DNA of 59,297 bases from Deltaproteobacteria bacterium (GTDB taxonomy: Bacteria > Desulfobacterota > Syntrophia > Syntrophales > JAIPED01): assembly GCA_021737325.1 (NCBI GenBank), contig JAIPED010000002.1:1-59297 (forward strand). Reading direction: 5' to 3'. Each line of letters begins with the position of its first letter. Within the stretch, counting starts at the first letter, position 1. A program made the translations under genes and the position numbers. The notes beneath the pieces are model-generated. The model worked only from the letters and a program-made list of their open reading frames with translations, made no database searches and was not told the origin of the DNA. Below are positions 3,351 to 44,575 of this stretch, piece after piece.

Positions 3351-3438
3351 TGGCGGAGAGAACAGGATTCGAACCTGCGTAGAGTTTCCCCTAACACGCT
3401 TTCCAAGCGTGCGCCTTCAGCCACTCGGCCATCTCTCC
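3351..3438 (-). tRNA. tRNA-Ser (anticodon GGA), 88 nt, CCA encoded
   Basis: The reverse complement folds as a class II tRNA. Acceptor stem is GGAGAGA/TCTCTCC and the T-arm is GCAGG-TTCGAAT-CCTGT. The anticodon stem-loop is CACGC-TTGGAAA-GCGTG. It has a long variable arm and ends GCCA. Confidence 0.93.
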
Positions 3439-3466: not shown

Positions 3467-3560
3467 TGGCGGAGAGAGGGGGATTCGAACCCCCGTGGGG
3501 GCTTTTGACCCCCAAACCGATTTCGAGTCGGTCCCGTTACGACCACTTCGGTACCTCTCC
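3467..3560 (-). tRNA. tRNA-Ser (anticodon CGA), 94 nt, CCA encoded
   Basis: Acceptor stem is GGAGAGG/TCTCTCC (one G-U pair) and the T-arm is GGGGG-TTCGAAT-CCCCC. The anticodon stem-loop is ACCGA-CTCGAAA-TCGGT. It has a long GC-rich variable arm. Confidence 0.93.
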
Positions 3561-26944: not shown

Positions 26945-29158
26945 TTAAAAGCGTTTATATCGTATCAGGAGCGAATTGGAAACAACGCTGAAAGAAGAGA
27001 AGCTCATCGCAATTGCCGCCAACATGGGGTTAAGCAAGAATCCAGTGAAGGGATAGAGTACCCCCGCTGCGATGGGTATTCCCAGTATATTATAACAAAA
27101 TGCCCAAAACAAATTTTGGCGAATTTTGCGGCGAATGTAAGCAGAAATATCTATTGCCACGGCTACATCTGTTATCTTGCTACGCATCAGAACAATGTCG
27201 CCAGTTTCAACGGCGATGTCCGTTCCCTCAGCCAGAGCGATGCCCAAATTCGCCTGCGCTAGTGCGGGCGCATCGTTAATCCCGTCACCAACGAATGCCA
27301 CTCTTAATCCCTTGGCTTGTAATTCCTTAACCAAAATAGCCTTGTTTGCGGGGAGCGTTTCGGCAAAGACTTCATCAATGCCAACCAAGCGAGCTATGCC
27401 TTGGGCGATTTCCTGCTTATCGCCGCTAACCATTGCTATCCGTTTACCCATTTGATGCAAATTGCCTATCGCTTCTTTTGCTTCTGCTCTGATTTCATCG
27501 CGTATTCCGAAGATGCCTAATAAAGCACCGTCGCATGCGAGATAAAGAGGGCTCTCTCCCGCACACAATAACGCTTCAACAGTGCCACGGGATTCGAGAG
27601 GAATGCTGCAGGAATTAGCCAGCAATAGCCGTTCGTTGCCCAGTAGCACCGTCTTTTCTTCACTATCCGTTCCGGTAATACCCATCCCTTCCCACTCGCG
27701 AAGCGTTGTAAGACTGGGCGAAACAAATCCCTTATCACCAGCGTAGGTAGCAATGGCCATCGCGAAGGGGTGTTTTGAGGTTGCGGCGAGGGAAAGAGCC
27801 TTCTCAGTAATATGCTTATCTGTAAGCCCGCCAAGGGGTAAAACTCGCGCCACGATTGGAATTCCCGTGGTTATCGTTCCTGTTTTATCAAACAAAACAA
27901 TGTCAATCTGCCGTGCGGTCTCCAAGACCGACACATTTTTTATTAAAATTCCCCGCTCGGAAGCCCTTCCCACCCCAACCATAATTGCTGTGGGCGTTGC
28001 CAGACCAAGAGAACAAGGGCAGGCAATGATTAAAACGGAGACCATTGTTGTAAGCGCAAACGGGAAATCGTATCCCGCAAACAGCCAGAAGGCAAAAACA
28101 CTCAGGGCGAGAGAGATGATGATGGGAACGAAGTAGAAGGAAACTTTGTCGGCCAAAACCTGTATGGGGGCCTTGGAGGCGAGGGCGTTATCGACAATTT
28201 TTATGATTCCTGCAAGCACGGTTTCCGCCCCTACCCGCCTTACGGCGAAGCGAAACGGACTTGTTTTATTGATCGTGCCGCCAACCACGGACTCTCCAAC
28301 GGCTTTGGCGATAGGAAGACTTTCTCCCGAAATCGCGCTCTCGTCAACCGTGGTTTGCCCTTCAATGACCACACCATCAATCGGAATTTTTTCCCCTGGA
28401 CGCACCAACAAGATATCTCCATAGCGGAGCTCCGCAACTGGTACCTCCACGAAGCCATCTCCCCGCAGGAGAGTGGCTGTTTTGGGTTGCAGCGCAAGAA
28501 GGTTCCTAATTGCTTCTCCCGCCCGACCTTTAGTTTTGGCTTCTAAAAATTTGCCCAAGGAAATGAAGACTAAAATGATACCCGCACTTTCAAAATATAC
28601 ATGCGCATTCTGATAGGCGGCGGGATGTACCCAGATAAAAATGCCCATAGTTAGACTATAAAGATAAGCGGCTACGGTGCCGATTTCCACGAGGCTATCC
28701 ATGTTGGGATTTCTGCTTAAGAGCTTTTTAAAGCCCGAAATATAGAGGTTCGCGTTAACCAACATGATGGCCGTGGTTAGCAATAGTTGCAGGATGATAT
28801 TGGTGCGTAAGGTAACGGAAGGCAAAGGCAGGTGGAGCATTTCGCCCATCGCCAGGTAAAATAACGGAGCTCCCAGGAGGAGGGAAAGGAGAAAGCGCTG
28901 TTTTAGATAGCCTATTTCATCTTCACTGTGCGTAGTGGCTGTATCTGTCGCATCGCCAACATCAAAGCCCTTTCCTCTGATAATTTTAGCGATTCCGTCA
29001 AAAGTAATTAAGTTACTGTCAAATTCAACGGTTGCCTTAGCGGATGCAAGGTTTATCCTCGCCGTTAGAACGCCCTGTGTTTGGTTTAGCGCCGCTTCCA
29101 AGCGTGCTGAACAGGAGGCTCAGGTCATTCCCCGTATGATTATTTCTCTCTTATCCAT
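26945..29158 (-). CDS. copA: Cu(I)/Ag(I)-type P1B heavy-metal ATPase with selenocysteine in the N-terminal HMA motif (GMT-U-ASC)
   Basis: [12 protein letters not shown] is followed by an in-frame TGA (29122..29120), then [17 protein letters not shown] continuing into the 718-aa track ORF. Motifs present: [22 protein letters not shown]-x4-P and MSFSS. An alternative start is ATG 29170. A SECIS-like hairpin lies 11 nt after the TGA. Confidence 0.85.
29088..29108 (-). promoter_or_regulatory. SECIS-like stem-loop for copA
   Basis: Minus strand AGCACGC-UUGGAA-GCGGCGCU gives a 5-bp stem with a bulged A. It begins 11 nt 3' of the UGA. Confidence 0.5.
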
Positions 29159-37417: not shown

Positions 37418-38677
37418 GTGAAAAAAAACGGTCGTATCGCATTATCCGTGCTGGCATTTTTTAGCTTTGCGGGGTTTATTTTTTTAGTAACAGATACTCT
37501 TGCCAATCAGACTAAGGATAGTAGTTGTGTTCGTTGCCACACCAATGCAGAAACTCTACAGCAACTACATATTGTTGATCCCAAGCTGTTGGAGCCCGCG
37601 GGGGAAGGGTGAGCGGGAGCGCCTCCGGCAGTTAAGCCGGAAGAAATGTATCGTGGCTTTCTAGTTGATGGGCGTTTGGTTGATTCCGATCCCCATTTTG
37701 CCAAAGGTTGCCAAGCATGTCATGGTGGTAATCATACCGCCGAAGCCAAAGAAAGCGCCCATGTCGGTTTGAATAAAAAGCCTTCCAGAAATCTGGCTAC
37801 ATGTGGCGAGTGCCATAAAGGTATAAGTGAAAAATTTTCCACCTCACTCCATTACACGAGCCATGGTCAAAAAATGGGGGTGAAGCCTCGCTTCAACGAG
37901 GGTGAATTCAAACACTTTGAGGAAAAGATTTTTGAACAGAGTTGTCGCAGTTGCCATGCTTCTTGTGGCGATTGCCATGTTAAAGGGGCACCTGTCAGTG
38001 GGATTAGCATTGGACTAATTGAGGGGCACAAGTTTATCCGTAAAAACGAAGAAAAAACCTGTGCCTTTTGCCATGGCGGTCGGGTTTATACCGAGTTTAC
38101 GGGAGAATATGGTGGTTCGCCTGATGTTCATTTCACGAAAGGAATGCAGTGTCTTGATTGTCATCAGCAGATGCACGGAGATGGCACCCTGTATAATAGC
38201 AAACAGGAAGTGAAGAGCCGCCCCAAATGTTCTAACTGCCATAACATGGCAGCTTCCGATTTGAGCGTTAGGCTCAGAACAATTCATGGGATTCATCAAG
38301 AAAAAGCGAGCTGTTATGCCTGCCATGCCGATGGCAACTACCGCAATTGCTACTCTTGCCATGGTGGACACTCAGAGGCCCAGCCAGGGTTTATTCTTGG
38401 GAAAAATCCCCGCAACACTGGACAGCTAACCACCCTGCGGGTTATTCCCACGCTTAACGATACCTTTACGAAGCAAGGATTGAATATGTCCAATTTCGAT
38501 GCCCTCCCCAACTATTGGGATAGCCCCGTGCACGCCATAAAAAAGAAGACGCGGCGCACCCGAGATTGTGATGCTTGTCATGTGGATAGAAGGAGCTTCC
38601 TTGAAGAAGGCGAATTAATCGAAGGTGGTGCGAAGGCCAACAAAGAGTTAATACCAAGCATAAAGCCGATAAAATAA
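37418..38677 (+). CDS. Undecahaem c-type cytochrome with an in-frame UGA (selenocysteine) after the first haem motif
   Basis: GTG start and an N-terminal signal/anchor ALSVLAFFSFAGFIFLV. There are 11 CxxCH motifs. TGA at 37610..37612 is in frame with the 343-aa track ORF, in the context EPAGEG-U-AGAPPAVKPEEMYRG. The downstream ORF alone has no signal peptide. A SECIS-like hairpin lies 11 nt after the TGA. Confidence 0.75.
37622..37643 (+). promoter_or_regulatory. SECIS-like stem-loop for the cytochrome
   Basis: TCCGGC-AGTTAA-GCCGGA (6 bp, extendable by one more pair across a mismatch). The core stem starts at 37624, 11 nt 3' of the TGA. Confidence 0.55.
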
Positions 38678-38723
38678 ACTGCTTGGATTAGCTATACAAG
38701 AAACAAAAAAGGAGAGTTTATCT

Positions 38724-39635
38724 ATGAAAGGTTTGGGTATGAGTAAAAAGGTGTTGTTGTTGGTGATGGTAGCCGTGCTGTTTTTGGCTTTGCCGTCAAT
38801 GCTCCTGGCAAAGAGGGAAGGAAATGTTGTTACGACTGAATGGTTGGGAAAGAACCTTTCCAAAAAGGATTTGGTTATTGTCGATGTGAGAAATTTTGCG
38901 GATTATAAAGCCGGGCATGTTCCCGGTAGCGTCAACATTCCTCTTAGCTCGCTGGCCATAGACAAGGGCGGGCTTAAAAATGAGGTTCCCGCAAATGAAG
39001 ATCTTATCGACATTATCTCAGAAAAGGGGATTGGTTCTTCCGCGCCGGTTGTTGTGGTAGGCTTGGCAGGAGAGAAGTTGCCCGATCGTGCGGGGCTGAC
39101 TCGTGCCGCTTGGACCTTGAAATACGCGGGCGTGCAGGATGTGTATGTTCTAGACGGAGGATTTGAGCAGTGGTTGGCGGAAAAGAAGCCTGTTGTTACC
39201 GAACTTCTTGATGTCAAAGAGAAGAAGTATCGCGGAAAAATAAAAGAGGGGCTTTTTGTTAATCTGTCAGGATTGCAAAGTGCTAAAGCCGCGGGTGCCG
39301 TAGTTGTGGATGTACGGGAGCTAGTGTTTTTCAACGGCGAACAGAAGTTGCCTTTTGTTGGGCAGTTTGGTCATGTTGAGGGCGCTCTTAATCTGCCCAC
39401 CGCGCAGGTATTTGAGGGTAAATCCTACAAGGGAAGAAAAGATCTATTAGCACTGGCAGAGACTGTTGTCGGCACGGACAAAGCCAAGCAAATAGTCGTT
39501 TATTGCGATTCGGGAAGAGTCGCGACGATTTGGGCTTTGTTGTTAGATGGACTTGGTTATAGCAATGTGGCCGTGTATGATGGTTCCGCGCAGGAATATG
39601 GTGCGGAAAATGCACCTCTCAAACTCGTGAAGTAA
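38724..39635 (+). CDS. Periplasmic tandem-rhodanese sulfurtransferase
   Basis: Signal peptide MKGLGMSKKVLLLVMVAVLFLALPSMLLA. The first domain has no active Cys. The second domain has the active loop VVYCDSGRVA. Confidence 0.8.
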   Translation: MKGLGMSKKVLLLVMVAVLFLALPSMLLAKREGNVVTTEWLGKNLSKKDLVIVDVRNFADYKAGHVPGSVNIPLSSLAIDKGGLKNEVPANEDLIDIISEKGIGSSAPVVVVGLAGEKLPDRAGLTRAAWTLKYAGVQDVYVLDGGFEQWLAEKKPVVTELLDVKEKKYRGKIKEGLFVNLSGLQSAKAAGAVVVDVRELVFFNGEQKLPFVGQFGHVEGALNLPTAQVFEGKSYKGRKDLLALAETVVGTDKAKQIVVYCDSGRVATIWALLLDGLGYSNVAVYDGSAQEYGAENAPLKLVK

Positions 39636-39645
39636 CAAGCTTACT

Positions 39646-39675
39646 GGCGGGGGCTTGCCAGCTCCCGCCTATTTT
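39646..39675 (+). terminator. Intrinsic terminator after the first rhodanese gene
   Basis: GGCGGGGGC-TTGCCA-GCTCCCGCC (9 bp including one G-U pair) followed by TATTTT. Confidence 0.6.
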
Positions 39676-39740
39676 CATCAGCGTCAACGGACATTTCGCT
39701 GTTCCATCTGGGCTTATGTAGTGGGAGGACCAATTTTAAT

Positions 39741-40463
39741 ATGAAATTTCTTGGGAAGCTATTAATTATAGTGGTTTTTGTGTGCCTGATGCTGTCTGGT
39801 GCCTTTACCGTATTCGGGGAAGAAATGAAGATTATTTCCCCCGCTGAACTTGCCCAAATTATTCCTAATAAAAAAATCGTTCTTATAAATACAATGAGTA
39901 AAATTGAATGCGATGACCACTCCATCGTGGGCTCTACCTGTATTCCTGTAGAAACAATGGAAGGTGCCGCAAGGAAGCTTCCCCAAGATAGGCTGGTAGT
40001 TTTTTATTGCGAATCAGAGAGTGGCACTAGATGCCGTCAGGCCGCAAGCATTGCCCGGGCGCAAGGTTTGCAGAATATAGCCATTCTCGGGGGCGGCTCT
40101 GTTGGTTGGCGTAAAGCGGGTTTTGACGAAGTTTCCTTAGAGAGAATTCGTCGCAGGGTGATTGTTAGCCTTGGTCCTGTAGCGTTACGAGATTTTATCA
40201 ACAAAAATAAATCTAACATATTCATCCTGGATATTCGCTCCGAAGAGGCGTTTCACAAGGGGCATATCAAGGGTGCAGAGAATATTCCCTTTTACCTCCT
40301 CCACGAACGATATTCCGCAATTCCTTCGGGTAAAAAGATAGTCGTTGTTGACGACAAAGGTCTTCGCTCCTTCCTTGCCGCTTCCTATCTGGTGGACAAG
40401 GGTTTTCGTGATGTTATTCGCCTAGCTCGCGGGATGGCTGGTTGGAATGAAGGTACTAATTGA
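39741..40463 (+). CDS. Periplasmic tandem-rhodanese protein (the second of two)
   Basis: Signal peptide MKFLGKLLIIVVFVCLMLSGAFTVFG. The first domain has the loop FYCESESGTRC. The second domain has Asp in place of Cys (VVVDDKGLRS). Confidence 0.75.
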   Translation: MKFLGKLLIIVVFVCLMLSGAFTVFGEEMKIISPAELAQIIPNKKIVLINTMSKIECDDHSIVGSTCIPVETMEGAARKLPQDRLVVFYCESESGTRCRQAASIARAQGLQNIAILGGGSVGWRKAGFDEVSLERIRRRVIVSLGPVALRDFINKNKSNIFILDIRSEEAFHKGHIKGAENIPFYLLHERYSAIPSGKKIVVVDDKGLRSFLAASYLVDKGFRDVIRLARGMAGWNEGTN

Positions 40464-40492
40464 GAGATAAGATTACTAACGGGGGCAGATGA

Positions 40493-42343
40493 ATGTTTAG
40501 ACGCTTTTTTTTGTTTATGGTTGGTCTTCTTTTTATTTTTGGTGGCGATTTATACGCCCGCGAGGACATCAGATGCTTGCGGTGCCATAGCACAATAGTA
40601 AACAAGGAAGCGTTTTTAAACTCTGTTCATGGTTACAACGATTGCGTTAGTTGCCATCGCGGCATCACCAACATTGAAGAACACATCGCGGGAGAGCAGA
40701 AACCGACCATGGCCGCTTGTGCGCAGTGTCATAAGGATATCGCGGAGAAGCATAAGCAAGGATTTCATTATCTACAACTGGATTTTAGATGCTGGGATTG
40801 TCATAACAATATCCACGCTATCAACAAAACGAAGAAAGAAAGTTTTAAAAAGCAGGTCGTCTTGCAGTGCACCAAATGTCATGCCAACGATGAGTATTCC
40901 GATTCTGGTCATGCCGAGGCGGTCATCAAAAGAGGCAACACCGATGCTGCAACCTGCTCTGATTGCCACGGGATTCATGACACAAAGGTTTTTCATACCT
41001 CGCTTGCGGAATATCCCCAGGAAGCGCGCAAATTCTATACGGATAAATGTGTTAAATGCCACTCAGATGAAGAAATAGCCAAAAGAAACAATCTGAACCC
41101 CAATTTAGTTAAGTTATACCACGAGACTTACCACGGCAAAATAGAGAATATTGGTTATTATTCGACGGTTGCGGGATGTGCCGATTGCCATCGCAGTCAT
41201 AATATTCTGCCCAAAAATGATACTCGCTCCAGCATTCATCCCGACAATTTGGTAAAGAATTGCGGTCGGTGCCATAGCGGTTTTGCTAAAGAGTTTGTTA
41301 GCTATAAAGCCCACCCTGATTATCGCGACCGAGAAAACTATCCTGCACTGTATTGGACATTCGTCTTTATGTCCGGATTGCTCATATTCACTTTCGGATT
41401 TTTCTGGATACACACAGGCCTGTGGTGGCGAAAGTCCTATTGGGAAAGCCATAAAGAGGAGAAGCGCGGGATTGTGCATCAAGCTCCTCCAGACACCAGG
41501 ATGTATGGGAAAAATGTTATGATGGTGCGCCGCTTTAAATTGCGCGACCGGATACTGCATTTCATCCTGATAATAGTGTTCTTCACCCTGGTAATAACGG
41601 GATTCCCGCAAAAATATCACACCTATGAATGGGCTAAGGCCGCTCTTGCACTTTTGGGAGGGGCGCATATGGCGGGATACCTCCATCGTGTTGCCGCCGG
41701 AATATTGCTGGCCGAGTTTGTCTTTGTTGCTGTTCTCTCGTTGCTCTTCTTGTTTAGAAAGCGCAAAAAGGGCGAGACGGTCATCACAAGGCTTTTAGGT
41801 CCCGATTCGCTGTTCCCCAATCGCAAGGATTGGGAGGATATGCGGGGGATGTTTTTGTGGTTCTTTGACAAAGGGGAAAGGCCTCGCTTTGAGCGCTGGA
41901 CCTACTGGGAAAAATTCGACTTTTGGGCGGTATTTTGGGGGATGTTTGCTATCGGAGGTTCAGGTTTACTCCTCTGGAAGGCGGAATTATCGTCGTACAT
42001 CGTTCCCGGCTGGGTTTTGAATGTGGCAACACTGATACATTCCGAAGAGGCGTTGTTGGCGACGCTGTTCATCTTTACAGTGCACTTTTTTAACACCCAT
42101 TTTATTCCCGATAAGTTCCCGATGGATAAGATGATCTTTACTGGAAGATACACCGTGGATGAATTTTACACTAACCGTCCGTTGGAATTTGAGCGGGTTG
42201 TACAGGAAGGCAGGCTTGAAGAGTTTCAAGCAAAGCATCCGAACATATATCTAAAAATTATTTCATTGGTGTTTGGTTTAGTTTGTCTGTTTACGGGAAT
42301 GGCGCTAACAGTTTTGATTCTGTGGTCATTTTGGCAACATTAA
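40493..42343 (+). CDS. Nine-haem c-type cytochrome fused to a membrane cytochrome-b (FdnI/HydC-like) domain; CbcL-like quinol oxidoreductase
   Basis: A signal peptide and 9 CxxCH motifs in the N-terminal half. The C-terminal half has multiple TM segments with conserved His (ILHFILIIVFF, YLHRVAAG, LIHSEEALLATLFIFTVHFFNTH). Confidence 0.75.
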   Translation: MFRRFFLFMVGLLFIFGGDLYAREDIRCLRCHSTIVNKEAFLNSVHGYNDCVSCHRGITNIEEHIAGEQKPTMAACAQCHKDIAEKHKQGFHYLQLDFRCWDCHNNIHAINKTKKESFKKQVVLQCTKCHANDEYSDSGHAEAVIKRGNTDAATCSDCHGIHDTKVFHTSLAEYPQEARKFYTDKCVKCHSDEEIAKRNNLNPNLVKLYHETYHGKIENIGYYSTVAGCADCHRSHNILPKNDTRSSIHPDNLVKNCGRCHSGFAKEFVSYKAHPDYRDRENYPALYWTFVFMSGLLIFTFGFFWIHTGLWWRKSYWESHKEEKRGIVHQAPPDTRMYGKNVMMVRRFKLRDRILHFILIIVFFTLVITGFPQKYHTYEWAKAALALLGGAHMAGYLHRVAAGILLAEFVFVAVLSLLFLFRKRKKGETVITRLLGPDSLFPNRKDWEDMRGMFLWFFDKGERPRFERWTYWEKFDFWAVFWGMFAIGGSGLLLWKAELSSYIVPGWVLNVATLIHSEEALLATLFIFTVHFFNTHFIPDKFPMDKMIFTGRYTVDEFYTNRPLEFERVVQEGRLEEFQAKHPNIYLKIISLVFGLVCLFTGMALTVLILWSFWQH

Positions 42344-42395
42344 TGATTATCTTAGCTTTATTTAGTTAGGGTCATTATTGGCAAGCATTTAAGGT

Positions 42396-43760
42396 GTGGT
42401 GATGGATAAAAAAAGGGTTGCTCTTCGTCAGGTGGATGTCCTTGTTAAGTTTTTTTCTTCGACATCGCTGGGCATTTTTCTTGTACTGATGCTGGCGGGG
42501 CTATCAATGGTGGGAACATTGGTGTCGCCCGTTGCTCTTCAAGCTCCGGAAGGTTTTTGGGGAAATCTCGCCTATGCGCTAAACCTTCACGATATCTATC
42601 ATTCATTCTTGTTTTTCGTTGTGGCTCTGTTGTTTTTGGTGAATCTGATTTTATGTTCCCTTAAGCGTCTGCCGCTGGCGATTGCCAACTATCGCAAGAA
42701 GATAGACACTGCGAACATGGGAATGCCTCCTATGGAAACGGTGTTTGTCGACGGTCTTAGCACCGAGATTGCGAACCAGCGTTTAGCCAAGGTTGCCAAG
42801 CGGTTTGAGCGTCAGGCAGGTCCATCACAGCAGCAAGCGCAGCTTTTTGCGTTTGATAAAGGGCGTATTTCCTATCTAGGTGTTTATATCGTTCACCTGG
42901 CCGTGGCCATTTTGACCATCGGTGCGGTTGTTAGTGCTCTTTGGGGAATTTCCGGGCAGGTAAAAATTGCGGAAGGACAAGAGGTATCGGAGGTAAGGTT
43001 AAGTAACGGTACAGTTCATGATCTGGGATTTTTTGTCCGTTGCGATAAGTTTACCGTTGATTTTTATGATGATCAACGCCCCAAAACATATCGTTCCGAT
43101 GTTGTTTTTACTAAAGGTAACGAAACGCTGGCGGCGGCAATCCGCGTTAACCATCCGGCCATTTTTGGAGATTACAGCTTTTATCAGGCAAGTTTTGGTG
43201 TGGAAGAAGGTAAGGCGATCTTTACGATAAAAGATGGCAAGGGTCTTAAAAAGCAACTGAAAATGCAGGAGGGCGATGTTGTCCGGTTTGATGATAATTT
43301 AAGCATCACCGTTGTTCGGGTCGAAGCCAACATGATGAATGCTGGACCTGCGGTAAACATGGTTCTTGAGCCCAAGGGAAAGCATCCACAAACACTTTGG
43401 CTATTCCAAAATATAAAAGAGATTGCCCGTGACAATCCAGGTATCATTGAGCGTTTCCCCGCATTCAATCCGCAGGTACTCGGTTTCTATTCATTTGATC
43501 TGCTGGGGTTGGAGGACAACTTTTACACCGTTTTGGAGATGCGTAATGATCCTGCCATAGCGATCGTTGCGATGGGCGGTCTGTTGCTAGTCGCAGGGTT
43601 GATATTGGTCTTTTACTATTCTCACCGTCGTGTTTGGATAACTATCGAGGCGGTTAATGCCGGCATTAGTTTTGCGATTGCGGCAAAGAGCAACAAGGAT
43701 ACGATAGGAATGACACGGGAAATTGAGTTGATCAAAGATATTATCCGGGGGAAACAATGA
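42396..43760 (+). CDS. resB: System II cytochrome c biogenesis protein ResB/Ccs1
   Basis: N-terminal TM segments, a large soluble domain and a C-terminal TM. It is translationally coupled to ccsA by a 4-nt overlap. Confidence 0.8.
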   Translation: MVMDKKRVALRQVDVLVKFFSSTSLGIFLVLMLAGLSMVGTLVSPVALQAPEGFWGNLAYALNLHDIYHSFLFFVVALLFLVNLILCSLKRLPLAIANYRKKIDTANMGMPPMETVFVDGLSTEIANQRLAKVAKRFERQAGPSQQQAQLFAFDKGRISYLGVYIVHLAVAILTIGAVVSALWGISGQVKIAEGQEVSEVRLSNGTVHDLGFFVRCDKFTVDFYDDQRPKTYRSDVVFTKGNETLAAAIRVNHPAIFGDYSFYQASFGVEEGKAIFTIKDGKGLKKQLKMQEGDVVRFDDNLSITVVRVEANMMNAGPAVNMVLEPKGKHPQTLWLFQNIKEIARDNPGIIERFPAFNPQVLGFYSFDLLGLEDNFYTVLEMRNDPAIAIVAMGGLLLVAGLILVFYYSHRRVWITIEAVNAGISFAIAAKSNKDTIGMTREIELIKDIIRGKQ

Positions 43761-44575
43761 ACACAAAAATATTTGCGTTGGTAACTTTTATTTATTTGTT
43801 TTCATTTGTTCTCTATCTAATCTCTGTGTCTTCCGAGAGGAAAAAGATTTCTTCCGTAGCTAACTATGTGACAGGGTTAGGTTTTTTGTTACATGCGGTT
43901 GGACTCATCACCCGCTGGGTGGAATCACATCAGCAGGGTTTTGGATATGCCCCTCTCTCCAATTTTTATGAATCGTTAGTGTTCTTCGCTTTTTCGCTAG
44001 TTGCCGTTTATTTCTACACAGCAAGAAGGGCAAAAAGCGATGCCATGGGTGTTTTTATCCTTCCCCTGGCATTTTTACTCATGGCCTTTGCCTCAATCAC
44101 TCCAGGGATGAGCTCGGCAATAGAGCCGTTAATTCCTGCCCTCCAAAGTAATTGGCTCATTAGCCATGTGATAACCTGTTTTCTCGGTTATGCAGGATTT
44201 ACCCTTGCGTTTGCCTTGGCGATTATCTATTCCCTTCGAGGAACGAAACTTGGTTTTCTCTGCCGTGGAATTTCCCCAGAACTCACCGAACAGCTCATGT
44301 ACACCACGGCGGCTTTTGGTTTTGTTCTCTTAACGATAGGCATTATTACCGGATCTATATGGGCACATTACGCTTGGGGTTCTTATTGGAGTTGGGATCC
44401 GAAAGAGGTTTGGTCGCTTATCACCTGGCTGGTCTATGTGGTTATGTTGCATTCTCGTTATGTTAGGGGTTGGGGTGGCAAAAAGATGGCGATTTTTGCG
44501 CTAATCGGTTTTGTTTGTGTCATTATTACCTATCTCGGTGTGAACTATCTCCCTGGCTTGCATAGCTATCTTTAA
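43757..44575 (+). CDS. ccsA: System II cytochrome c biogenesis protein CcsA/ResC (haem-handling W-rich motif)
   Basis: WAHYAWGSYWSWDPKEVWSL tryptophan-rich WWD motif; polytopic membrane protein. Confidence 0.88.
   Translation: MNTKIFALVTFIYLFSFVLYLISVSSERKKISSVANYVTGLGFLLHAVGLITRWVESHQQGFGYAPLSNFYESLVFFAFSLVAVYFYTARRAKSDAMGVFILPLAFLLMAFASITPGMSSAIEPLIPALQSNWLISHVITCFLGYAGFTLAFALAIIYSLRGTKLGFLCRGISPELTEQLMYTTAAFGFVLLTIGIITGSIWAHYAWGSYWSWDPKEVWSLITWLVYVVMLHSRYVRGWGGKKMAIFALIGFVCVIITYLGVNYLPGLHSYL

Follow-up and report, generated by a model that had tools for sequence, protein, structure and literature searches.

MccSep, or ExtKL (GSU2937-2936), is a five-heme cytochrome of Geobacter sulfurreducens that contains selenocysteine (Sec); it reduces polysulfide, and selenite less well, and is required for the respiration of elemental sulfur (S0) (Mihara et al., Sci Adv, August 2026; PMC13510729). 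Its active site places Sec325 beside a heme ligated by Cys239, and the enzyme oxidises methyl viologen with a Vmax of 59 µmol per min per mg for selenite and 83 µmol per min per mg for polysulfide, with a sevenfold preference for polysulfide (PMC13510729). Homologues are present in sulfur disproportionators, and the chemistry is possibly the reverse of that of TsdA and SoxAX (Mihara et al., PMC13510729). The ext cluster, extHIJKLMNOPQS, also holds the rhodanese-like ExtH and was first linked to selenite and tellurite reduction (PMC5877670). Before August 2026 there was no known example of a heme-dependent selenoenzyme that reduces sulfur, and apart from MccSep none has been characterised. Here we describe a gene cluster at positions 37418-44575 of a 59,297-nucleotide stretch of DNA from a Deltaproteobacteria bacterium (GenBank assembly GCA_021737325.1, contig JAIPED010000002.1, the whole stretch being referred to as the window), in which the gene for an 11-heme cytochrome with an in-frame Sec codon stands next to a gene for a tandem rhodanese. 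By analogy with the known systems we give about an even chance to this cluster encoding a periplasmic, quinol-fed reductase for sulfane sulfur in the form of polysulfide or protein persulfide.

Like MccSep, the window cytochrome would be a periplasmic multiheme c-type cytochrome with one Sec encoded by an in-frame UGA and followed by a hairpin, and like MccSep it is split into two open reading frames (ORFs) by annotation pipelines. Both are found mainly in Desulfobacterota, clustered with a rhodanese-like protein, further multiheme cytochromes and a membrane cytochrome-b module. The key differences lie in the number of hemes, which is 11 rather than 5, in the absence of a conserved extra Cys equivalent to the heme-ligating Cys239, and in the position of the Sec. 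In the window cytochrome this is residue 65 of 419, after heme 1 in a GEG-U-AG motif, while Sec325 of MccSep lies in a C-terminal Ig-like domain (DG-U-P). The surroundings differ from those of the ext cluster as well, since the partner is a tandem rhodanese of approximately 300 amino acids whose gene adjoins that of the cytochrome and in some cases is fused to it, the ExtI porin and ExtJ are missing, and a CbcL-type fusion takes the place of the Rieske/cytochrome b pair ExtOP as electron input. The family criterion used for MccSep is a DIAMOND match at E ≤ 0.01 (PMC13510729). Searching the PDB sequences, which include the MccSep chains 9wt8 and 9wt9, with phmmer and with a 66-sequence profile gave no match between the two at E ≤ 10, and the NCBIfam model for ExtKL, NF040886, was not matched by the window cytochrome. 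The initial annotation, made from the window sequence alone, had named the Geobacter ext cluster as a parallel, which was apt given that ExtKL is itself a Sec cytochrome (PMC13510729).

Other Sec cytochromes that have been catalogued include the octaheme cytochromes of the tetrathionate reductase family (OTR-type, TIGR04315) and the GSU2204 family (table in PMC13188914). These are also multiheme c-type cytochromes with Sec in some members, but the window cytochrome matches neither model and differs in both heme number and motif. ExtKL, GSU2204 and the OTR-type cytochromes all appear in a catalogue of prokaryotic selenoprotein families from May 2026, which has no entry like the window cytochrome (PMC13188914), and literature searches for a Sec undecaheme cytochrome, or for Syntrophus together with a rhodanese and a multiheme cytochrome, found nothing. 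As judged from its sequence the window cytochrome is a member of an uncatalogued selenoprotein family, belonging to an already established kind, the Sec multiheme cytochrome with a rhodanese partner.

Two further systems offer functional parallels. In Wolinella succinogenes, PsrABC, a molybdoenzyme of the membrane, receives polysulfide sulfur from the periplasmic rhodanese-like carrier Sud. The arrangement proposed here is alike by description, in that a periplasmic rhodanese-type sulfur carrier would be paired with a quinol-linked terminal reductase, but the reductase would be a heme/Sec enzyme instead of a molybdopterin enzyme, and the rhodanese has tandem domains where Sud has a single domain. 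The cytochromes TsdA and SoxAX, insofar as they are cited in PMC13510729, oxidise thiosulfate by means of a His/Cys-ligated heme. They would share with the window cytochrome a chalcogen nucleophile beside a c-type heme for S-S chemistry, but no sequence relation was found, the window cytochrome has no conserved Cys, and the direction here is likely to be reductive.

The cytochrome gene (37418-38677, plus strand) is a single frame with one interruption, the TGA at 37610-37612. It encodes 419 residues, beginning with a hydrophobic signal-like segment at residues 7-25, and has 11 CxxCH motifs, of which one precedes the TGA and the other ten follow; the peptide context of Sec65 is ...LEPAGEG-U-AGAPPAVKPEEMYR. 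A protein search returned 442 homologues, nearly all of approximately 345 amino acids and covering the part after the TGA only, which indicates that they have been cut at the TGA by gene callers. One homologue, P0038, belongs to the cultured species Syntrophus gentianae. Scanning the GTDB species representatives revealed relatives of the cytochrome in at least 372 stretches from as many species-level genomes, the carriers being syntrophs from anaerobic digesters, sediments and groundwater. We fetched 80 of these loci, mostly from metagenome-assembled genomes of Syntrophales. A TGA within GEG-U-AGAPP is found at 79 of 81 readable loci (78 of the 80 fetched, plus the window), and every codon extracted at this position in them is TGA. 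The fragment before the TGA holds a signal peptide and an invariant heme motif in all readable loci, while the 10-heme part after it has no export signal of its own. As the initial annotation had proposed, the in-frame TGA is, on this comparative evidence, a genuinely recoded and conserved Sec codon.

A global reassignment of TGA was also considered and ruled out, since TGA terminates 13 of the 44 long ORFs in the window; the standard genetic code applies. On the minus strand, a gene for a CopA-type P1B ATPase (26945-29158) contains an in-frame TGA at 29120-29122 that replaces the first Cys of the GMTCxxC motif (GMT-U-ASC), and its HMA domain is confirmed once Cys is substituted for the TGA. 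The "cation-transporting ATPase UxxC" is a catalogued selenoprotein type that matches this motif (PMC13188914). The ATPase is therefore a second likely selenoprotein of the window, and its presence suggests that the organism probably decodes Sec.

Close homologues of the cytochrome that do not contain Sec have Trp, Ser, Arg, Ala or Tyr at this position. Further away, Cys occupies it (G-C-[GA]-G..P) in 13 of 40 distant full-length cluster representatives. A profile search of the whole library gave 134 clusters (50% identity) at E ≤ 1e-30, and approximately 29 of the best 150 clusters begin exactly past the Sec position, suggesting that these are of the Sec type and have been cut by gene callers. 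Four distant Sec-type relatives (P0394, P0401, P0440 and P0392) are much longer at the C-terminus, with numerous further CxxCH motifs and a membrane anchor at that end, which suggests that this N-terminal unit also serves as the base of larger, modular cytochromes.

The UGA is followed after 12 nt by a SECIS-like hairpin (37624-37641, plus strand) with a 6-bp stem and a 6-nt loop, AGUUAA in the window, in which the GU is invariant. Over 76 distinct sequences 94.5% of the cells of the stem are paired, compared to 34-61% in slid controls. Three of the pairs show compensatory double changes, for example from G-C to C-G with the protein changing from PAVKP to PPVKA. The fold z-score of the window hairpin alone is unremarkable. 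The hairpin is consistent with SECIS function in these alignments but is not decisive, and the assignment of Sec is not based on it.

The gene downstream of the cytochrome encodes Rhd1 (38724-39635, plus strand), which has a hydrophobic signal-like N-terminus and two Pfam Rhodanese domains (E = 3.6e-33). The N-terminal domain lacks Cys and is predicted to be inactive, while the catalytic Cys of the C-terminal domain, Cys261 in the loop CDSGRV, is invariant in 79 of 79 orthologous matches. Two domains with a single catalytic Cys in a six-residue loop is the pattern of the tandem rhodaneses (TST/MST). Rhd2 (39741-40463, plus strand) also has two Rhodanese domains behind a signal-like N-terminus, but with the domains the other way around: the N-terminal domain carries a Cys (YCESESG, loop CESESGTR) that is present in approximately 21 of 30 orthologous matches, and the C-terminal domain has Asp at the catalytic position (VVVDDKGLRS) in 32 of 32. 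Both signal-peptide rhodanese pairs, with these loops, had been anticipated in the initial annotation; the loops are all found in the translations, and CDSGRV and the Asp loop are conserved in the orthologues. Neither rhodanese reached an equivalog model among SseA, GlpE, PspE and ExtH, the best being SseA with 95.8 bits against a cut-off of 250 and ExtH with 52 against 200.

To compare the gene neighborhoods we searched the fetched loci with the window proteins using tblastn. Of the 77 loci whose flanks are long enough, 66 have Rhd1 next to the cytochrome, 61 of them downstream and 5 upstream, and in its smallest form (L067) the unit is reduced to these two genes, which lie amid genes for ribosomal proteins. 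The gene for the CbcL-like protein lies within 8 kb in 27 of the 47 loci that have at least 7 kb of downstream sequence. Rhd2 accompanies it in 26 of these 27 loci, as does an additional multiheme cytochrome of approximately 535-680 amino acids, here called xcyt, which is located between Rhd1 and Rhd2 (for example 12157-13764 in L004). The same gene order in dozens of species-level genomes indicates that the order of the cluster is more than chance. The expectation that the cytochrome, both rhodaneses and the CbcL-like protein would occur together is borne out across many genomes, but as judged from gene order the conserved functional core is the Sec cytochrome and Rhd1 only. Rhd2 and the CbcL-like gene form a module of their own, which is kept even where Sec and Rhd1 have been lost.

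In the window six ORFs, all on the plus strand, make up the cluster, with intergenic spacers of 46, 105, 29 and 52 nt and a 4-nt overlap between the last two; the six co-oriented genes with short spacers in the initial annotation stand at these coordinates. No xcyt is present in the window, where the space between Rhd1 and Rhd2 is 39636-39740, or in the closest relative L081, whose cytochrome is 73% identical to that of the window. Compared to most relatives the window cluster is by gene content a reduced variant without xcyt. A terminator-like hairpin and weak T tract (39646-39679, plus strand) sit exactly where most relatives carry xcyt. The hairpin itself (39646-39669) has a 10-bp stem with 8 G-C pairs, followed by TATTTTC, and is the strongest such site in the region, in keeping with the earlier description of 39646-39675 as terminator-like; it has no counterpart in L081, however, so conservation does not extend to this relative.

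Directly 5' of the cytochrome, L081 (296-2393), L006, L009, L012, L025, L028 and L052 carry genes for repressors of the CsoR/RcnR family. These have two conserved Cys, and the residue four places ahead of the second one is not His, a pattern that we take to resemble the persulfide sensor CstR more than the Cu-sensing CsoR. L081 and some other relatives also encode a TAT-exported HybA/HmcB-like Fe-S protein and a cytochrome b; neither of these, nor a CsoR-like repressor, is present in the window.

The presence of Sec and that of Rhd1 vary together. Six close homologues with a sense codon could be read (L070 and L084-L088), with Arg twice, Ser, Ala twice and Tyr at the Sec position, and the differing replacement residues suggest independent losses of Sec. 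Rhd1 is absent from all six, most of which keep the xcyt-Rhd2-CbcL genes, with or without ResB-CcsA. By comparison 66 of 76 Sec forms have Rhd1 (Fisher p = 2e-5, a value that ignores phylogenetic non-independence). Two proteins fuse the cytochrome to a tandem rhodanese. In P0421, a Sec-type cytochrome with a C-terminal tandem rhodanese, the TGA was verified in the DNA (GKG-TGA-GGS; L083, 1-2047), and P0391 has a similar fusion. An apparent N-terminal rhodanese-like segment in P0397 was not confirmed by Pfam. Among distant Cys-type relatives, L091 has a gene for a tandem rhodanese lipoprotein next to the cytochrome and in L089 the next gene starts like a rhodanese lipoprotein, while no rhodanese lipoprotein gene is next to the cytochrome in L090.

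The fourth gene (40493-42343, plus strand) encodes a predicted inner-membrane protein with a hydrophobic signal-like N-terminus, nine CxxCH motifs at residues 28-261, whose hemes would be periplasmic, and then transmembrane segments (286-304, 354-372, 403-421 and 592-610, plus weaker ones). Besides multiheme matches it gives weak ones of the cytochrome b561/FdnI kind, to Ni_hydr_CYTB (E = 4e-6) and formate-dehydrogenase gamma, which are below the curated cut-offs. Geobacter CbcL (GSU0274) is an inner-membrane quinol oxidoreductase that serves extracellular electron transfer, and Syntrophus homologues group with it at 57.6% identity or more (PMC6295460). The window protein, 58% identical to the Syntrophus sp. 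protein P0126, has the architecture of that family, with nine CxxCH motifs in the N-terminal half and a diheme cytochrome b in the C-terminal half, of approximately six transmembrane helices with HydC/FdnI-like b-heme ligands; the likeness, which had been noted initially, is one of architecture (PMC6295460). All nine motifs, nine distal His and the membrane His at 307, 356, 398, 516, 531 and 536 are invariant in 116 homologues. Unlike GSU0274, the gene shares its cluster with the Sec cytochrome and the rhodaneses, Rhd2 preceding it in 26 of 27 loci.

The last two genes, annotated from the outset as System II resB and ccsA, encode ResB/CcsB (42396-43760, plus strand; PF05140, 234 bits, E = 3.5e-69) and CcsA (43757-44575, plus strand), the CcsB of TIGRFAM naming (TIGR03144, 251 bits against a cut-off of 187.6; also PF01578). 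The pairing of a ResB-family membrane protein with a downstream CcsA that carries a WWD motif, here WGSYWSWDPKE, is the hallmark of System II cytochrome c maturation. Among 25 loci, 17 have the pair directly 3' of the CbcL-like gene and 8 lack it, and no copy is found within approximately 3.5 kb downstream in the complete chromosome represented by L045 (OY970063.1). No second resB/ccsA copy is present in the 59-kb window. The linkage is facultative, and from their distribution these genes probably belong to the general System II machinery of the cell and simply lie near the cluster in many genomes, as the initial annotation had cautioned.

In 80 full-length reconstructions of the cytochrome all 11 CxxCH motifs and nine further His are invariant, but no Cys apart from those in the motifs is. 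Nine invariant distal His for 11 hemes leaves two hemes without a conserved distal His; candidate ligands for these would be Sec65, Met243 and Lys376, or the hemes may be five-coordinate. An AlphaFold2 model of the Trp-form homologue P0003 has a pLDDT of 70.6, and Foldseek gave no meaningful match to it in the PDB library (to April 2026). Searches of PDB sequences with a single sequence and with a profile gave only short CxxCH-centered matches to NrfA, NrfB, UndA and c552. With NCBIfam and Pfam, only generic multiheme models were matched by the cytochrome and none above an equivalog cut-off. Weaker NCBIfam matches link the cytochrome to ExtM/N/O and Rhd1 to ExtH, which are "selenite/tellurite reduction operon" models, but all are far below the cut-offs (38-52 bits against 200-800).

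If the cluster is a sulfane-sulfur reductase, menaquinol would be oxidised by the CbcL-like 9-heme/diheme-b protein and electrons would pass to the 11-heme Sec cytochrome, via xcyt in most relatives and without it in the window. The invariant Cys261 of Rhd1 would bind sulfane sulfur in persulfide form for presentation to the cytochrome, where Sec65 would attack the Rhd1-borne sulfur to give a Se-S intermediate; heme electrons would cleave this intermediate and set sulfide free. The rhodanese would then provide, in trans, the thiol that partners Sec, a part played in cis by the heme-ligating Cys in MccSep. The 20 hemes of the cluster would be attached by ResB and CcsA. The substrate, the direction of electron flow and the Se-S chemistry are proposed by analogy with MccSep/ExtH and Sud/Psr, MccSep beside ExtH being the precedent for a Sec cytochrome-rhodanese sulfur reductase that reduces polysulfide. 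We infer quinol as the electron donor, for which the CbcL architecture and the invariant c- and b-heme ligands are support, and the CsoR-like repressors upstream of the cytochrome in at least six relatives also count for sulfane sulfur.

We also tentatively propose, as a possibility that falls short of even odds, that the GEG-U-AG cytochromes represent a second, evolutionarily independent class of Sec-dependent multiheme sulfur reductase, with an active site split between Sec65 of the cytochrome and the catalytic Cys persulfide of the neighboring or fused tandem rhodanese. Sec65 might in addition be the distal ligand of one of the hemes that lack a conserved His.

Several observations weigh against a sulfane-sulfur reductase of this kind. 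Ten Sec-type loci have no adjacent Rhd1, and the cytochrome-rhodanese fusion P0391 has Tyr at the Sec position. The close non-Sec homologues do not have Cys there either, which is unusual for a catalytic Sec, although the joint loss of Rhd1 is a possible explanation for these replacements. In a folding control the hairpin is kept in two non-Sec homologues, so that constraints on the peptide may explain part of its conservation. The Sec loop of the P0003 model is disordered, with a pLDDT below 50, and with no structural neighbor the model gives no placement of Sec relative to a heme. MccSep also turns over selenite, which leaves room for selenite or tellurite as the substrate. Cultured Syntrophales are not known to respire sulfur, and the literature search found nothing specific.

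The proteins of the cluster could instead act on chalcogen oxyanions, as a selenite/tellurite reductase or detoxification system in which Sec attacks the oxyanion and the rhodaneses carry Se as perselenide. The selenite-dependent methyl viologen oxidation of MccSep (PMC13510729), the first assignment of the ext cluster to selenite/tellurite reduction (PMC5877670) and the Ext matches of the cytochrome and Rhd1 would all fit, and the reference list of PMC5877670 points to rhodaneses being able to carry selenium. We consider this unlikely, however, because the Ext matches are so far below the cut-offs and the physiological role of MccSep, with its preference for polysulfide, is S0 respiration. 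Occurrence in at least 372 species-level genomes of syntrophs is also easier to reconcile with a plentiful sulfur substrate than with selenium at trace levels, and the CbcL-type quinol module points to respiration and not to detoxification. The chemistry could also run in the oxidative direction, with the Sec cytochrome and rhodanese oxidising thiosulfate, sulfide or persulfide in the manner of TsdA/SoxAX and the CbcL-like protein feeding quinones, for example during sulfur disproportionation. CbcL/CymA-type proteins are able to run both ways (PMC6295460), MccSep homologues occur in sulfur disproportionators, and the MccSep chemistry may be the reverse of TsdA/SoxAX. An oxidative role is nevertheless very unlikely given that there is no conserved extra Cys for a His/Cys-ligated heme as in TsdA or SoxA, that Sox, Dsr and Apr genes are absent from the window and the inspected flanks, and that, partly on general grounds, what a strictly anaerobic syntroph-like lineage lacks is a sink for electrons and not a donor.

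A generic periplasmic or extracellular electron-transfer chain, with Sec as a structural element or heme ligand and with accessory or coincidental rhodaneses, would agree with the role of Geobacter CbcL and with the shortage of distal His, since only nine are invariant for 11 hemes. The non-Sec homologues that keep the xcyt-Rhd2-CbcL-ResB-CcsA context are presumably still electron carriers, and many distant relatives have neither Sec nor Cys at the position. Such a chain would leave the near-universal and costly Sec codon (79/81) unexplained, together with the adjacency of Rhd1, the fusions and the joint loss of Sec and Rhd1, and neither in the window nor in the loci inspected do genes for an outer-membrane conduit lie beside it; we regard it as decidedly unlikely. 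That the TGA is a true stop, in a pseudogene or between two genes for a 64-residue monoheme peptide and a 343-residue cytochrome, is how automatic gene callers have split the locus in the window and in nearly all homologues. This is almost certainly wrong, since the downstream 10-heme part has no signal peptide and so could not be exported or matured, the codon in the 79 loci is TGA and never TAA or TAG with coding sequence conserved on both sides, and the readable sense-codon homologues are single ORFs.

If the GEG-U-AG cytochromes are indeed a second class of Sec-dependent sulfur reductase, polysulfide or S0 could take up the electrons of syntrophs that classically transfer hydrogen or formate. 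Should the family reduce polysulfide, syntrophs would have an unrecognised electron sink and take part in cryptic sulfur cycling. Compared to MccSep, the fold signature, heme count and Sec position of this family differ and the Cys partner in cis is missing, yet a periplasmic rhodanese again recurs as the accessory protein, which looks like convergent use of selenium beside heme for S-S chemistry. The family is also a large one, with hundreds of Syntrophales species, that is systematically cut at the UGA by annotation pipelines. For experiments, the joint loss of Sec and the rhodanese and the natural fusions provide ready-made predictions and constructs.

The genes that flank the cluster are unrelated housekeeping genes, with an aminotransferase, a YkuD transpeptidase and a VWA protein upstream, and LysS and Lol-type ORFs downstream. 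The LysS of the window is 64-67% identical to proteins of Syntrophaceae/Smithellaceae and shares no more than 71% identity with any database entry, which suggests that the window comes from a divergent Syntrophales-like member of Desulfobacterota. An Rfam scan of the 59-kb window found two tRNAs only and no tRNA-Sec. Two adjoining tRNA-Ser genes lie on the minus strand at 3351-3438 and 3467-3560 (anticodons GGA and CGA). Between approximately 16000 and 56000 the long ORFs are almost all on the plus strand and the cumulative GC skew rises steadily, which fits a leading-strand segment.

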